Shown: positions 6,162 to 60,157 of the stretch, one piece after another
Position numbering within the stretch: position 1 is the first letter of the stretch
Layout: each line of letters starts with the position of its first letter
Assembly (NCBI GenBank): GCA_965603515.1
Contig: CBFDDH010000007.1
Span: 1,231 to 65,230, forward strand
Direction of reading: 5' to 3'
Source: an uncultured bacterium
GTDB taxonomy: Bacteria; Hydrothermota; Tepidihabitantia; SM23-42
DNA length: 64,000 nucleotides
The notes under the pieces: model-generated
What the model was told of the DNA's origin: nothing
The model's database searches: none
What the model saw: only the letters and a program-made list of their open reading frames with translations
Program-made: the position numbers and the translations under genes

Positions 6162-7418
6162 TCAGAACTCTTCTCTTTCAACATCTTCTTTTTCCTTATC
6201 ACCAAGCATCTTGATCGTAGAACGTAAGATCTGCTGTACTTCAACCTTGCCCAGCAACTCATTCTTGTCTCTTAGGTGCTGAAATACTTCAATGATCCCG
6301 ATAACAAAAATCCTGCGGTAGCTGATATCAAGCGACTGCAATTCTACAGCAGCATGTATCATATTGTCCATGGATTCATGGAGAACTTCTTTATCAAAAT
6401 CAAAGCGGTAGGCAACCCGGAAGATTTCGGCAAGCTTAACGCCCAACCTGGTCAGGAATTCTTCAGGGGTTACACCGATTTCCTCGAGGTTGATCTTGAC
6501 CCCCATCGGATTGATGCGAGTAAAACTGGAACGCAGGCGTTGTTTTAATGCTTCGTAGACACCACCACTCCCTTCAAGAAGAAGGTTCTCATCGGGTACT
6601 GCATAGAAAAACATTGCCCCGGGCAGCCTTGAATTACCGCACTCATCGACCAATTGACGAAGGTTATCGAGTGCCCGACGCTTGTCCCTGGTCGATGAAA
6701 TACTCATCCCCCGCTCTGCTTCATCAAACAGAAAGATCAGCCCGGTATAGCCTATGGAATCGATAAATTGAACCAGGCTACGCAGCATCCTAAATGCAGT
6801 ACTGCGATCGATGCGCTCGGAAATCCGATGACGCAGTCTCAATTCTCTCGGGATATCTTCACCTTTCAACCATTGAACAAGACCGTTGAATTCATCTTCA
6901 TCATCGCTGGCCAAACTCAGCACCGCTGCTTTAAGTGCATTTGTGTAACTTGAACTCTCAAGGTTCGTGATCTGGGAGATGAAATCCCTTTGTTCGCGGG
7001 CATTCTTGTACCAGTGTCTTAGCAAAGTCTCAATACCTGTCCCTTGGGCTGGTTTAGAAGCAACTAATGTCTGCGGCGATATTATGTTAGCGGCGATTTT
7101 TTTATAGACAAGTTCCAAACGGTCAAACGGGCATTCTGTAGGACTAAGACTCACATAACTCGTCACATAGTTTTGCCGCCAGGCAAGGTTTCTTATCGAA
7201 TACAAAAAATGAGTCTTGCCTCCGCCGTAGTTGCCGGTTATCAATTTGAATGAAGACAAATTAAATTTTAACATATCCTTCAAATATTCGTTCTCAATGA
7301 CTTCGAGATAAGGTTCTAATCCGACTGTAAAATGTTCAGTACCGAATTCCGGTGGTGTACCAAAACTACCGAGTTTATGAATGATTGCTTTTGCTAATTT
7401 CTGGTCTTCCTGTTTCAT
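6162..7418 (-). CDS. DUF2791/BrxD-like P-loop ATPase
   Basis: Walker A GNYGGGKTH, Walker B LIFLFDEAE, FGTPP, DNLRQLVD, YEALKQRL. Confidence 0.85.
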   Translation of the reverse strand: MKQEDQKLAKAIIHKLGSFGTPPEFGTEHFTVGLEPYLEVIENEYLKDMLKFNLSSFKLITGNYGGGKTHFLYSIRNLAWRQNYVTSYVSLSPTECPFDRLELVYKKIAANIISPQTLVASKPAQGTGIETLLRHWYKNAREQRDFISQITNLESSSYTNALKAAVLSLASDDEDEFNGLVQWLKGEDIPRELRLRHRISERIDRSTAFRMLRSLVQFIDSIGYTGLIFLFDEAERGMSISSTRDKRRALDNLRQLVDECGNSRLPGAMFFYAVPDENLLLEGSGGVYEALKQRLRSSFTRINPMGVKINLEEIGVTPEEFLTRLGVKLAEIFRVAYRFDFDKEVLHESMDNMIHAAVELQSLDISYRRIFVIGIIEVFQHLRDKNELLGKVEVQQILRSTIKMLGDKEKEDVEREEF

Positions 7419-7475
7419 TTAGTTAGTTGATTTCTTTATATCCTGACATCCTTTGATCTTTAGGTATTTAGGCAT

Positions 7476-8321
7476 TTAGGTATTTTGGATTTTTTCGAAG
7501 GATATGTGTGAATAATGAGTCCCTTCACCCTCATCATTTTCCAATATCCAGAGGGTGTTAATTTTATCAACTGTCGCATCAAACGTTGCAACGTGTAGCC
7601 TGATATTCTTCTCAAAAAACTCTGATCTTTTCAGGAAGTACATAAGATAACTCAGAGTAACGCGCGAATATCCTCGGAATTTACTTTTCTGGGGATCAAT
7701 CAAGAATTGCTTGGATTGTTGCAACAAAACGAATTCACTGAGTACCTTCATGATCGGTGTTTTTTCACCAAAGGATTGACCAGTCATAATGAGTCGGCGC
7801 TTATAAGCCTCGTGTAAAGTCTCATACATATCAGCCGCTGTCATTTTGAGTGCATGCAAATCATTATCAAACTTTTTCACCGTCTCAAATACAGTTACTG
7901 CCTGGAGCGGGATCTTTGATTTTATTCTCTCAATTTCAGGACCGAAGAACAACTCGACCGAGCCAAACTCGAAATCAATTTTAAGGGTGTATATCCCCAT
8001 CCGAAGAATCGGATACTGACCTCTGATTTTTTTACCCTCTTGAGCAAAAAGCGCGGTTAGCTCTTGACCAAATTTGATCCTGAATTCTTCTTTGAAACCA
8101 TCTATCTTTTTCTTTTCTTTAACCAACCACTCAGTCAGGTCTTTAGCCAATTCCTTTACAGTCAACTCGGACAGGCAGCTTTCAATCATCTGCAGATTCT
8201 TCTCAAGCAAATAGGCATTATCTACTGGTTTAGACCTGATTTTGTCATATTTATTCAATAACTTGGTCAATCTGTTGATACCTTTTACTGCTGTCCTAAG
8301 CCTCTTTAGAATCTCATCCAC
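7476..8321 (-). CDS. Hypothetical protein, helical Lys/Glu-rich N-terminus; first gene of the ATPase/helicase operon
   Basis: 281-aa ORF directly behind a TTGACA-16-TATAAT promoter, co-oriented with the three downstream genes. Confidence 0.75.
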   Translation of the reverse strand: MDEILKRLRTAVKGINRLTKLLNKYDKIRSKPVDNAYLLEKNLQMIESCLSELTVKELAKDLTEWLVKEKKKIDGFKEEFRIKFGQELTALFAQEGKKIRGQYPILRMGIYTLKIDFEFGSVELFFGPEIERIKSKIPLQAVTVFETVKKFDNDLHALKMTAADMYETLHEAYKRRLIMTGQSFGEKTPIMKVLSEFVLLQQSKQFLIDPQKSKFRGYSRVTLSYLMYFLKRSEFFEKNIRLHVATFDATVDKINTLWILENDEGEGTHYSHISFEKIQNT

Positions 8322-41267: not shown

Positions 41268-42467
41268 TTACAGAATTATTAGTTTCTTTGTCATTGTTGT
41301 CGTATTTACTCTGAGTCTGACAAAATAAATACCTGAAGTAACGCGCCCCTTTTCCCAGACGTGTTCATGCATACCTACATCTTCAGATTGACTGACCACA
41401 ACATCAATCAGCCTGCCATCTGCAGAATAAATTTCTACACTAACCGGGGTGATTTCTGTCAGTGAATATCTTATGTGCACGATTTCTTTTGTCACATTAG
41501 GAGTAACCGCGAAGTTAGAGATTATAGTCTGCTCTGTTTCTTCCACACCCGGATTAAACGCGTTCTGGTAGTATCTAATATAGCCATCAAAATCACTCGT
41601 TAGGATATCGACCGCACCATCTCCATTGTAATCTATAAAGAAAGGTCTATTGGCTTGATTCCCACCAATGTAGGAACCGCCTGATACCTTTAATGTATCA
41701 CGAACATTGAATATTGGACTGGCATTTGTCCCGACATTCTTGTAGAAGTAAATGTATGTATATTGATCGCCCAAGATAAGATCTTTTAGCCCATCGCCAT
41801 CAAGATCGCAGATCCTCGGGGTAGCTCGATAATGATAGATCGGACTACCACCGCAGTTAATATAACTGAACGTAGTGAAGACAGGGTTCGCATTGGTGCC
41901 TTGGTTAAGATAAAGCCTAACTGTTCCCGTACCAGATTCTGATCCTATTATCAGATCTTTTTTACCATCTTCATTCCAGTCTACCACATCGGGATTAGCA
42001 TTGTTACCCACATCGATCTTTATACCATTTGCCCGCACTGTATCCAACAATGTTAAACCACGAGCTTCCTCTAGATACAACATGGTATAACCGTTTCTGT
42101 CACCGACAAGAATATCTCTTTGTCCATCTTCGTTCCAATCGCACACGGCGATCGCTGAGCCCTGACATCAGGACGCATAGACGGAAATGGGAGATCCGTC
42201 GGCCTGCAAATACTGAAATGAGATGTATGAAGGATCCTCATTTGTCCCGTAATTTTTATAGACACGGACATAGCCAGAAGAATACTGGCCTGTGACCAAA
42301 TCCTTTACATTATCACCATCCCAGTCATAGTAAAATGGAGAGCCGTACCAGGTTACATCGATTATACTCCCATTTGCCAATACATACTCGCCAGTTTCAA
42401 AAACCGGCGTCTGTGCGTGTACTGCAAAGAGAAAACCGATGATTAGTATTGCACATGCAAGTCTCAT
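41268..42467 (-). CDS. Secreted FG-GAP repeat protein with C-terminal sorting-type domain; one 399-aa ORF if TGA 42168-42170 is decoded (putative selenoprotein, motif AS-U-C)
   Basis: Two track ORFs in the same frame; sequence reads ISVYAS*CQGSAIAVCDWNEDG, placing the TGA inside an FG-GAP repeat; GGAGGAG RBS before ATG 42467. Confidence 0.8.
42136..42154 (-). promoter_or_regulatory. SECIS-like stem-loop
   Basis: CGATCGC-CGTGT-GCGATTG; loop 20 nt after TGA. Confidence 0.65.
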
Positions 42468-44369: not shown

Positions 44370-46631
44370 CTATTTTACGAGTATCAGTTTTTCCAGGTAG
44401 TCTGTATTTTCAGTTTTGAGTTTGCAGAAATAGATACCAGCCGAGACTCTATTATCTTTCCCATCAAAACCATCCCATGAGATTTTGTGCGTTCCAGCCT
44501 GTTTGATATCATTAATGAGATTCTTAACCAATCTGCCCTGAATATCATAGATAGACAGTTCGACTGCTGTTTGTCTGGTCAATTGAAAATTCAGTACTGT
44601 CTGCCCTTTTGCCGGATTGGGTTTTGCGAAGAAAACAAACCTACCGATAGATTCTTCTTTGCTTTCTTCAGCGCCAACCAGAAGTGACCAACGGTATGTA
44701 CTACTACCATTTGTACCGGCAAAAATGTAGTTATTAGGATTAACATCAAGGCAATTGATATTCATTACGTCAAGCCCATCGTTCATCGACTCCCACGAAC
44801 TGCCATTATTCGTACTGCGGTACACGCCGTTGCTATAGGTTCCAGCATATATCATCGTGGCATCTGTAGATGTATTATCAATAAGGATTGTATTGGTTCG
44901 GCCACCGCTGAATCCAGTAGTCGCCCATGTCGATCCACTGTCTGTTGATTTATACAGGTTGATCGATGTTCCCGTATACATAATATTTGTATTGTCAGGA
45001 TCAACTACCAGGGCATAGACATAACCAGACAGACCAGTAGTCGGTAATTTTGTCCAGTTACTTCCACTATCAGTCGTTCGGTATATCGCTGAACCGCTTT
45101 CATAACCACCTGCGTACACGATATTCGAATTGCCAGGATCCATAGCCATGGCGTATAAATATCCAGTGCTCGAGCCAATCGTGTACCGCGTCCAACTGTC
45201 TCCTGTATTGGTAGTCTTTGAGACTGACATCTTATACAATGAATCACCGGGGTCGTAATAGCGTCCACCACACCAGAATATCGAATTGTTGCTGTGGTCA
45301 CAAATAAAATCTCCACCATCCGCATAGTAAAGGTCTTTGACGTTCCAGACGGACCCGCCGTCTGTGCTCAAGTAGAGCTCTGAATTGCCTCAGCCCGAGC
45401 CCTCAAAACCAAAAACAAGATCCGGGTCAGTATTGTGTACGCCAAAAGCACACAGCGCGCCGCAGGTTGAAGGCGTCGGCAGCAGGTCCCAGGCAGAACC
45501 GTTATCAGTTGTCTTATAGACACCAACATTTTCAAACTCTGTATACAAGGTTGCTGGTGATGACGGAGCAAGACCGATATCATTTATTTCTCCAAGGTAC
45601 ATTCCGTTTATCGCAGCAGCCCATGTCGTACCCATGGTTGTGGACTTGTAACATCCCGCGTTATTACCAACATACACATTTGAAGTACTAACCGGGCTGA
45701 TCGCTAAGCCCCAAAAGTAGCTACCATCAAGCCCTGAACTAAAAGAAGTCCAGGTAAGCCCAGCATCGGTGCTCCGGTACACTGAAGAATATGCAGTTGA
45801 AAACACAAGATCCGGATCGAGTGATGAGGTTGCCATACGGTAATTATAGAAGTATGTGGAAACCTTCGTCCATGAACCTCCATTGTCAGTCGAACGATAG
45901 ATACCATCAGTGTAAGTACCTGCGTACACGATATTCGAGTTGGTCGGATGAACGGCCATTGAATAAGTATAGTAGCCTGACGTAGCTGCCCAGGTAACAT
46001 CAGTGAAGTTCGAACCGCCGTCAGTTGATTTGAAAACTCTGGGATAGTATGTCGTAGTGACATACTCAGACCCGCCCACGAATATGGTATTCGGTGATGA
46101 CGGATCTATTGCCACACACCAGCCATAGCAATAACTGCCATTACTGAGAACAGTGGTCGTGGTCCATGTCGAACCGCTGTCTGTGCTCTTTATGAATACC
46201 ATATCGTAAACACCAGAGGCAATATATTTCCGACCTGCGCCCACGATAATAGATGGGTCAGCCGGATGCACGGCAAGACCATAAACATAGACGCTTGTTA
46301 CAGTCCCAGATGTCCACGTCGCACCATTGTCAGTCGATTTCCAGACGCGACCATAGTAACCTGAGTATAGATTATCCGATGGGTCAATAGCCATACAATA
46401 GTTGTAACCATTATATGAACCGGTCCTTGTCCATGAGGCACCGGCGTCGATTGATCTAAAAATCTTGCAGGGATACGAATACGAAGCGGCATAGAGAATA
46501 TTCTCATTACTCGGTGAAACCACGACTGAACGGATATTCCCACCTGCAGGTCCAATCGCTTCCCAAGCTCCATATGAGAGGGCACATAAACAAATGAGTG
46601 TTACTACAACTAATACTTTTTGCATAAGCAT
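44370..46631 (-). CDS. Secreted BNR/Asp-box beta-propeller protein with FlgD-Ig/sorting-type C-terminus; one 753-aa ORF if TGA 45390-45392 is decoded (putative selenoprotein, motif SG-U-G)
   Basis: Two track ORFs in the same frame; reads FGFEGSG*GNSELYLSTDGGSVW, so the TGA is inside a blade; many S-T-D-x-G-x-x-W repeats. Confidence 0.8.
45346..45364 (-). promoter_or_regulatory. SECIS-like stem-loop
   Basis: Perfect 7-bp CAGACGG-CGGGT-CCGTCTG; loop 32 nt after TGA. Confidence 0.7.
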
Positions 46632-58784: not shown

Positions 58785-60077
58785 CTAACGAACTTTGACT
58801 ATCTTTTGCATTATTTTGCCGTCTATCTCAATAAAATAAATGCCGGGCTGTACGTGCAAAACATCGATCTGTCGCCCGGTGATATCGTAGACATCACACT
58901 TCTTACCGGCAGGTAAGTACAACGGTCCGCTGATTATTGTAGCATGGAAGAATTCGTTATCTTGCCAAAAACCTGGTGTCTGTTCTACACCGAGTTGAAT
59001 ATCCAAATTACCAAATATATCATAGTTACCCCCGCAGAATTGTTGCCAGGCCACCAAAGACTCAGCATTACCGATCGCCAAAGACGGGAAATCGCGGGTG
59101 CAACTTACTGTATCTGAAATCCGGAAGTTGCTGCCAACAAGTTCCCCTGACATTGATACGCGCTGGCCAAAAATGGCGCAGTCCTGGCTCCACACCACAA
59201 GATAAAAACTATCACCAGCGCAGACGCGTGCTCCGTATTGATAGGGAGAATCATCTGCAATGGCGATAGCAGCGCCGATCAGATCGCCATCTACTGAAAC
59301 GAGCTGTCCATACACATCATCATCATAGTATGGTGACGGCTCGTTCCAAACAACCAGATAACTACTATCACCAAAAGCAATATCCGGGTCTAATAGGGCA
59401 TCCTCTGACAATACTCTGATGACAAACTCATGATCTTCAGGCTGACATTCAGAGTTTATGAATCGACCGAAAAGACCAGCTGGGTTATGGTTATAGTTAT
59501 ACCAAACCGCAAAATACCGCTCACCATCAAAAGCTACGGCTGGTCGGTATTCACAATAAGCCCCCATGCCAAAAACCACACCAGAATCAAGAACTGCGCC
59601 GTCAGGGGTCACACGCGCTGCCTGAACCTTGTATTCACCGCCAAAAGTACCGTCTGACCAGACTACCAGGTAATTATCACCACCAAAAACGATATCTGGT
59701 TCGCGCGAGACTTCGCTATCAGCTTTCACAAGTATCGTGTTTAGCATCTGAAGCTCTGGAGTGACCCGCACCCCGATTATATTTCCGATATTTCAACAAC
59801 CGTAGCGGAAAACAAATAGAAGGTTCTGTCCATCATAGGCAGTACGGATACCGTATGTTGAATACCCTTGATAAAAGAATACGCCGGTCGAGTCAATCAC
59901 CGTGCCGTCTGGTTTCACGCGTGCACCATAAATTGACATTGACTGCCGGAAATCTGACCAGAACACATAATATAAACTGTCAACAAAGATAACACTTGGC
60001 TGAAATTGAGATTCCGAGTGTCCACATATAGTGAAATCAGCATTTATAAAAACTAAACATAAGCTAAGTAGAAACAT
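58785..60077 (-). CDS. Secreted beta-propeller-like repeat protein with C-terminal sorting-type domain; one 430-aa ORF if TGA 59793-59795 is decoded (putative selenoprotein, motif GC-U-N)
   Basis: Two track ORFs in the same frame; reads FRYGC*NIGNIIGVRVTPE; the repeat unit YLVVW..I.G.RV..DG occurs on both sides; the only signal peptide is upstream of the TGA. Confidence 0.8.
59758..59774 (-). promoter_or_regulatory. SECIS-like stem-loop
   Basis: GGGGTG-CGGGT-CACTCC (one G-U pair); loop 24 nt after TGA and identical to the loop at 45353-45357. Confidence 0.62.
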
Positions 60078-60157
60078 ATTATCCTCGGTTCACTAAATTG
60101 TAACTGCACTAGGAGTCAAGTCAAGAGGGTATGTTTCCTGTTTGATGCTCGAAGAAA

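Follow-up and report, generated by a model that had tools for sequence, protein, structure and literature searches.

An in-frame UGA codon within a repeat-containing gene

The 64,000-nt stretch of DNA analysed here (the window) is located on contig C7 of the genome of an uncultured bacterium, which comprises 2.47 Mb in 81 contigs with a G+C content of 41.7%. Near relatives of this bacterium, obtained from sediments, have been deposited as Candidatus Stahlbacteria (WOR-3 group), and the sequencing runs whose DNA contains the stretch are marine-sediment and cold-seep metagenomes. On the minus strand, positions 58785-60077 are occupied by a gene, P0001, of 430 codons plus stop with one in-frame UGA. 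This UGA is codon 95 (59793-59795, minus strand), which we propose to be read as selenocysteine (Sec); immediately 5' of it lies the TGT codon of the invariant Cys94 (59796-59798, minus strand). With UGA taken as a stop, an open reading frame (ORF) of 94 residues (59793-60077, minus strand) ends in ...FRYGC-TGA, and the same frame runs on as NIGNIIGVRVTPE... to the stop at 58785. A Shine-Dalgarno-like GAGGA occurs 4 nt 5' of the ATG at 60077 (60082-60086, minus strand); apart from a GTG within the hairpin described below, no comparable signal was seen for the downstream 'ORF'.

The gene sequence is periodic, with a repeat of approximately 50 residues (...YLVVW.D.....IYG.RV...G..LD...), and the UGA is situated within the second repeat. 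The first-pass annotation had noted that the repeat unit continues across the UGA, and this is borne out by alignment of the second blade of the predicted propeller, LLFVFRYGC-U-NIGNIIGVRVTP, with the third, YLVVWSDGTFGGEYKVQAARVTP. It had also noted that the downstream ORF has no signal peptide; this is right, the leader being present only on the upstream piece, although that leader is itself atypical.

A read-level check of the codon, suggested at the same time, recovered the TGA from independent assemblies and from an RNA contig. Logan contigs of the probable source sample were identical to the gene region. A Logan contig from a different study, covering 59683-59950, has kept the TGA and differs in the hairpin region by a single synonymous change, C to U at 59775. 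Three marine-sediment metatranscriptomes yielded short contigs on the gene, one of which (59769-59937) crosses the UGA unchanged. This RNA contig shows that the gene is transcribed and that the UGA is unedited; it bears on transcription, not on decoding.

Conservation of the TGA among homologues

We compared approximately 180 distinct homologues, 88 plus 8 (the latter from other classes) from genomes of the same phylum (WOR-3, Candidatus Stahlbacteria; 41 related genomes and a phylum-wide sample of 201 genomes) and 93 more from metagenomes. The TGA occupies a single alignment column, always after Cys, in all of them. A six-frame search of the 41 related genomes returned about 100 matches of approximately 430-450 residues, nearly all with exactly one TGA, and at least 34 of the 41 genomes hold matches of this length with exactly one TGA each. 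The motif surrounding the codon is [FVL][RQ][DN]xC-U-xx[GA][DN][IV]xGVRVTP across the 88 distinct sequences and GC-U-G[FL]GDIHGVRVTP in the members from another class and in G161. Two members carry a TAG besides the TGA (G026:C32:14994-16271 and G028:C4:17440-18531) and may be decaying copies or assembly errors.

The first-pass annotation had proposed a homologue alignment to distinguish C-U from C-C, and every family member turned out to be C-U. A profile search of 1.84 billion representatives was swamped by giant multi-repeat proteins and was uninformative on a full-length Cys form; the question was therefore answered by pattern scans. For these we used a DNA pattern degenerate at the amino acid level, TGY-TGY-N6-GSN-RAY-RTN-N3-GGN-GTN-MGN-GTN-ACN-CC, with a TGA version as control, on 241 million metagenome records. 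The TGY-TGY pattern gave 0 stretches in these records, compared to 119 for the TGY-TGA version. The 93 distinct metagenome sequences derive from these 119 stretches, and their open frame extends over a median of 104 codons 5' and 334 codons 3' of the TGA. No homologue that aligns Cys with the Sec was found among family members, non-Sec relatives and database matches. Proteins of similar size with about 31% identity (G067, G108) have no TGA; they, like the long multi-repeat relatives, carry an ordinary repeat loop at the site and no Cys-Cys.

A small hairpin downstream of the UGA

The hairpin GGGGUG-CGGGU-CACUCC (59758-59774, minus strand) lies within the codons for G-V-R-V-T-P and resembles a selenocysteine insertion sequence (SECIS) element. 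Its 5' arm GGGGUG covers 59774-59769, the loop CGGGU 59768-59764 and the 3' arm CACUCC 59763-59758. It is present as the first-pass annotation had described it, except that the 24 nt given there as the distance to the hairpin is that from the UGA to the loop: the 6-bp stem begins 18 nt past the UGA, and the loop begins at nt 25 (24 nt between). The SECIS scoring proposed there also came out in favour of the element, with the distance right, G and U in the loop conserved and covariation at synonymous sites.

The core stem is 97.9% paired in 87 distinct sequences, compared to 44-62% if the 3' arm is slid by 1-3 columns. Double changes occur at three stem pairs (17 cells), and none of 500 shuffles reached any of five measures. 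As the stem is written into Gly-Val-Arg-Val-Thr-Pro codons, third positions open to synonymous change face each other in two of its six pairs, and at these two all four Watson-Crick types were seen. The Gly3/Thr3 pair is A-U (58), G-U (11), G-C (6), C-G (5) or U-A (3), and the Val3/Val3 pair is G-C with A-U and C-G as exceptions. One member has GARAAP in place of GVRVTP, so that the amino acids change in step while U-A becomes C-G. A distant clade (f13) has GGGGUC-CGUGU-GACCCC, in which the Val codons are exchanged, a clean swap of G-C to C-G.

Codon choice within the hairpin departs from that in the remainder of the same genes: GTG occurs in 84 of 88 sequences (22% background), GTC in 80 of 88 (29%), ACT in 68 of 88 (20%) and GGA in 60 of 88 (20%), and the Arg codon is CGG or CGT in 84 of 88 versus a background of 40%. 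In the Pro codon the third base, which is unpaired, varies freely. Among the 93 metagenome sequences, the pair positions left free by the search pattern are paired in 91 and 92 sequences, respectively, and the loop is CGUGU (57), CGGGU (35) or AGGGU (1). Three additional pairs beneath the stem are only half conserved.

The consensus for bacterial SECIS elements of Zhang and Gladyshev, with E. coli fdhF as archetype, reportedly places the apical loop 16-37 nt from the UGA with a G/U in the loop. The hairpin agrees with this type of stem-loop in the distance of its loop, the G in the loop and the conserved structure. The locus shares with bacterial genes that depend on SelB and SECIS the in-frame UGA, a stem-loop within the coding sequence, a loop 24 nt past the UGA and the presence of selA-selD. 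Unlike those, it has a stem of 6 bp with a partly conserved extension and no evident bulged U, and its loop, CG(G/U)GU, differs from the GGUC-type loop of the HdrA-like genes in the same genome. By sequence comparison the hairpin would be an unusually small, well-defined SECIS element and a putative target of SelB. Being contained wholly within the G-V-R-V-T-P codons, this tiny hairpin is a compact candidate SECIS for engineering.

Selenocysteine machinery and genetic code of the host

The only tRNA with anticodon UCA in the genome is tRNA-Sec. It is adjoined by both selB (367 bits; cut-off 242) and selA (544 bits; cut-off 268), and a selD of the Sec type (320 bits) with its own in-frame TGA was also found. 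With tRNA-Sec, selA, selB and selD, the complete selenocysteine machinery is present. The TGA of selD (L099, G000 C4:64754-65656) occurs in ...CPG-U-ASK, which fits a UxxK motif, and the gene is extended at its N-terminal end by about 130 codons of the same frame.

Of 1320 ORFs with 250 codons or more, 402 (about 30%) end in TGA. It is thus an ordinary stop, and there is no genome-wide reassignment; a genome-wide reading of TGA as Gly or Trp was rejected on this stop-codon usage. Within the sample of 201 genomes, selB above the curated cut-off occurred in 20 of 22 genomes with the UGA family but in 46 of 179 others (Fisher p = 3e-9), and G108, which has only the non-Sec form, is without selB. 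A transfer-messenger RNA predicted by ARAGORN (G000 C26:27119-27465) has the tag EKAISCRPVSW without the usual ...LAA-type ending, which may be due to a mis-set resume codon.

Decoding of the UGA codon

The conserved codon, the covarying hairpin and the host machinery make a strong case for recoding of the TGA as Sec. Overall, we consider it very probable that the UGA at 59793-59795 is a Sec codon decoded by way of the hairpin and SelB, and that the gene specifies one 430-residue propeller with a Cys-Sec pair. tRNA-Sec, brought by SelB bound to the small downstream hairpin, would decode the UGA, and the product would then be one protein of 430 residues, not a 94-residue stub and a headless ORF of 328 residues.

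Several observations weigh against this. Folding of the single sequence gave -9 kcal/mol (z = 0.15 versus shuffles), no better than shuffled sequence, and no SECIS family of Rfam was found in the whole window at the gathering threshold, which returned only a tRNA-Val; the case for the candidate hairpin rests on comparison, not on energy. In two genomes (G018, G029) the family members are intact, but a search for selB at E <= 1e-50 found none; these are fragmented metagenome-assembled genomes (300 and 110 contigs), and the missing selB is probably due to incompleteness. The customary test, by pairs of Cys and Sec homologues, is inapplicable, since the sequences compared include no Cys homologue. 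Sec at codon 95 is, moreover, a prediction from the nucleotide sequence.

Alternatively, the UGA might end a secreted peptide of 94 residues, with the downstream ORF as a separate gene that starts at the conserved GTG in the 'hairpin'. Public gene calls indeed split the locus in this way. A collection of 5.8 billion proteins contained only post-UGA pieces of about 320-331 residues (approximately 75% of the query), named 'hypothetical protein', whose first residues (MRVTP, MGVRVTP or MADIFGVR) place their starts within the hairpin or shortly 5' of it. The record for "candidate division TA06 bacterium DG_78" has genes of 99 and 331 residues that give a full member when joined with U. The GTG at position U+8, present in 84 of 88 sequences, could be explained as a start codon, too. 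However, members with another codon at this site (GTC in clade f13, ATC in L082, GTA in L052) show a matching change in its pairing partner, indicating that the constraint is base pairing and not initiation; the start-codon account of the conserved GTG was rejected on these compensatory swaps. Two genes would, moreover, break in the middle of blade 2, leaving about 1.7 blades upstream and a downstream piece without a leader. The possibility raised by the first-pass annotation that the two ORFs occur separately in other genomes did not materialize: the two invariably lie side by side in one frame, down to about 31% identity. The family also co-occurs with selB, and we regard two separate genes as extremely unlikely.

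A second way to obtain the full-length protein is read-through without selenium: Trp, Cys or Gly might be inserted by a suppressor or near-cognate tRNA, or a local reassignment might have changed the meaning of the codon. Gly, Cys or Trp would be sterically plausible at this position of the loop, and UGA is reassigned in some uncultured lineages. Against this stand the use of TGA as a stop in about 30% of long ORFs and the lack of any tRNA with anticodon UCA other than tRNA-Sec. The conservation of the hairpin at the RNA level and the link to selB would be left unexplained, and an acceptable Cys would predict TGY forms, of which none was found. This appears very unlikely. Errors do occur in metagenome-assembled genomes, and the few relatives with an extra TAG (G026:C32, G028:C4) may be decaying, so a pseudogene or a TGA arising from sequencing or assembly was also considered. 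Yet about 180 distinct sequences, obtained from many samples, have the codon in this alignment column, it recurs in independent assemblies, both halves are conserved at the protein level, and homologue identities of 31-95% exclude copies of one contaminated assembly. The probability of a pseudogene or an error is negligible.

Predicted fold and position of the Cys-Sec pair

AlphaFold2, run on an alignment of 18 sequences, gave an all-beta model with at least 28 strands and a seven-fold period of about 50 residues (predicted local distance difference test score, pLDDT, 85.4; predicted template modelling score 0.79). We consider it reasonably secure from this model that residues 14-362, approximately (58992-60038, minus strand), form a seven-bladed beta-propeller. 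Successive blades can be recognized by the strands YYVFW, LLFVFR, YLVVW, YFAVW, YLVVW, YLVVW and SLVAW, and Trp is invariant at positions 140, 192, 244 and 344. Foldseek searches against the PDB returned only generic propellers of about 10% identity, the best of which (template modelling scores 0.53-0.61) are seven-bladed enzymes (7esk, 7roo, 4irt).

Cys94 and Sec95 are predicted in a short loop between strands 86-92 and 98-105, where they replace the W-x-D of the other blades. The strand order of the model suggests that this loop joins strands B and C of blade 2 (B-C loop) and, by the usual topology, lies on the face with which propellers normally bind ligands ('top' face); an invariant vicinal Cys-Sec pair would thus be displayed there.

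Leader, C-terminal tail and probable export

The protein begins with a hydrophobic leader, MFLLSLCLVFINA (60039-60077, minus strand), which is followed by the conserved ADF(P/T)IC and has no basic residues. In 70 homologues, 11-15 hydrophobic residues without Lys or Arg precede the conserved [AG]-DF-P-I-C. The leader is modelled as a helix (residues 2-11, pLDDT 39) outside the fold and is probably a signal peptide, if an atypical one. At the C-terminus, a tail of residues 385-430, approximately (...YDITGRQIDVLHVQPGIYFIEIDGKIMQKIVKVR; 58788-58925, minus strand), resembles the last half of the type A sorting domain of the type IX secretion system (T9SS), below the cut-off. Where relatives without Sec have a homologous tail, they contain PF18962 or have names that refer to a T9SS type A sorting domain, and significant matches to Por_Secre_tail also occur in other proteins encoded by the genome (P0002, 43.7 bits).

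The leader and the tail make it probable that the protein is exported, with the leader and then the T9SS-like tail taking it out of the cell. If so, only the read-through product would have both signals, as the leader is encoded 5' and the tail 3' of the TGA. Two points speak against export. The leader is without the basic n-region of a standard signal peptide, and the tail (...PGIYFIE..G.IVQKVVKVR) scored E = 0.04 and 13.8 bits against TIGR04183 (cut-off 23). When 18 members were searched, 6 reached E <= 0.05 and none the cut-off, with only the last 30 or so model positions matching; no T9SS type A sorting domain above the cut-off was found with TIGR04183, and Pfam gave no hit.

Related proteins and possible function

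The majority of known bacterial selenoproteins are oxidoreductases of the cytoplasm and have a thioredoxin-like fold. Mammalian thioredoxin reductase has the Cys-Sec motif GCUG. Vicinal Cys-Sec (CU) selenoproteins, namely SaoL (MerB-like), SaoC, SaoB, HgcA and Csac_0668, are associated with organometal or metal chemistry (PMC13188914, Table 1). Like these, the propeller protein would possess a vicinal Cys-Sec dyad able to form a selenenylsulfide or to chelate soft metals or organometals. It is unrelated to them in sequence (no NCBIfam hit) and is predicted to be a beta-propeller, not thioredoxin-like, MerB-like or corrinoid-binding; its dyad is located in an internal loop, not at the C-terminus, it is probably exported, and it has no Cys form. 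In MccSep/ExtKL, a multiheme cytochrome of Geobacter, Sec and Cys act on extracytoplasmic polysulfide (bioRxiv 10.1101/2025.11.18.688581). MccSep provides a precedent for extracytoplasmic Sec chemistry in anaerobes; it is a heme protein with heme-ligating Cys, whereas the propeller protein lacks heme motifs and has a different fold. The CU families and MccSep are analogies of chemistry, not relatives.

WOR-3 and related candidate phyla commonly contain proteins that have the same repeat (P.IAFDG.NYLVVW.D.R....DIYG.RV...G..LD) but no Sec, in many cases together with a T9SS sorting domain; the repeat superfamily comprised 48,448 cluster representatives at E <= 0.001. They share the repeat, the propeller built from it and a homologous C-terminal tail. 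They differ in having a W-x-D loop where R-[DN]-x-C-U sits and no UGA, and they form a separate branch of the tree; many are far longer, with up to about 7,900 residues. DUF3659 and GH43 fragments on long relatives were dismissed as weak repeat noise that provides no functional lead.

By analogy with the chemistry outlined above, Cys-Sec may represent a surface-exposed redox or soft-ligand site based on a selenenylsulfide/selenolate-thiolate couple. Its targets in sulfidic sediment would be extracellular: sulfur species, disulfides or metal(loid)s. That such a site acts on sulfur species, disulfides or soft metals is speculative and serves us as a working hypothesis. Neither homology nor context lends support to it: Pfam and NCBIfam gave no hit on the full protein, no specific structural relative from which a function might be derived was found by Foldseek against the PDB, and no gene neighbourhood is conserved beyond the genus, tandem clusters of paralogues having no constant partner.

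It is also conceivable, if on balance doubtful, that WOR-3/Stahlbacteria possess an 'extracellular selenoproteome' exported to the cell surface, of which the family would be one arm and the secreted BNR/sortilin-like, FG-GAP-like and lectin-like UGA families of the same genome the others. Selenium would then be indispensable, given the lack of Cys forms, and Cys-Sec would perform chemistry beyond the reach of sulfur in sulfidic sediment. If this were true, such proteins might attack polysulfide or elemental sulfur, reduce disulfides of detrital proteins ahead of secreted peptidases, or bind soft metal(loid)s. The family points to extracellular selenium chemistry that is directly testable.

Family distribution and paralogues

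At least four further copies occur in the source genome, on contigs C1, C10 and C12 and, in part, on C28, and some relatives have 6-10 family copies, at times in tandem. The 201-genome sample further revealed members in G161, which represents another family within the same class, and in G049, G056, G062 and G074 (clade f13), which belong to a different class. In a tree of 95 members, four non-Sec proteins were placed on one branch with 99% support, and the paralogues of the source genome fell into separate deep subclades, each with orthologues elsewhere. Hence, the duplications date far back, with Sec kept in all of these subclades. Such ancient divergence among the 4-10 copies per genome suggests varied specificities around one chemistry; if exported, these copies would be a large outlay of selenium in the cell envelope of an anaerobe with a small genome. 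Synteny with an MBL-fold hydrolase and rubredoxin was found within the genus only. In a single case (L100/L101), not conserved elsewhere, a C25 (gingipain-like) peptidase with a T9SS tail is encoded directly upstream of one member.

Relation to catalogued selenoproteins

A 2026 review lists 119 prokaryotic selenoprotein families (PMC13188914), and this inventory has no entry for a propeller, repeat, lectin, sorting or secreted selenoprotein family. None was found in BSepDB and the deep-Sep papers either, and neither the NCBIfam selenoprotein models nor Pfam gave a match to a catalogued family. Full-text literature searches for Stahlbacteria or WOR-3 together with selenocysteine, or for a selenoprotein with T9SS, returned nothing relevant. 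Common methods to identify selenoproteins require Cys/Sec pairs (PMC13188914) and would overlook a family that has no Cys form. We conclude that the sequences point to a new family of selenoproteins, made by the canonical bacterial mechanism and listed in no catalogue examined. By this reading, hundreds of gene pairs in sediment metagenomes, of about 100 and 330 residues and named 'hypothetical protein', would be single selenoproteins, and the prokaryotic selenoproteome is probably undercounted in candidate phyla.

Further UGA sites in the genome

The first-pass annotation had likened the loop to that of another site in the window, at 45390. The two loops are the same: CAGACGG-CGGGU-CCGUCUG follows the TGA at 45390-45392. 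This TGA lies in a gene at 44370-46631 (minus strand) for a 753-residue propeller of the BNR/sortilin type with a significant T9SS tail and the context ...EGSG-U-GNSELY. Its loop is 32 nt past the UGA, and five paralogues in the genome (three on C4, one each on C12 and C33) have the same arrangement.

Two other TGA codons in the window join ORFs of the same frame. One is located around 36689 (plus strand; ...TYHC-U-GATETAKVFAD, loop GGUC) and has paralogues on C3, C10 and C64, the other at about 42168-42170 (minus strand; ...VYAS-U-CQGSAIAVCDW, loop CGUGU) with a paralogue on C3. Loops after UGA elsewhere in the genome are GGUC in the HdrA-like and lectin-like genes and AGUUA in selD, and all post-UGA loops compared contain a G-U step. 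A crude scan of the genome gave about 20 or more candidate Sec sites, many in paralogous secreted families. At L052 (G028:C28:7840-18957), a frame of about 448 codons, o316 (approximately 6405-7748, plus strand), is located among three tandem copies of the propeller family and has a TGA at codon 137. It ends in a T9SS-like sequence (...GVYIVMLTAG...LVLVR) and may represent a further secreted Sec family.

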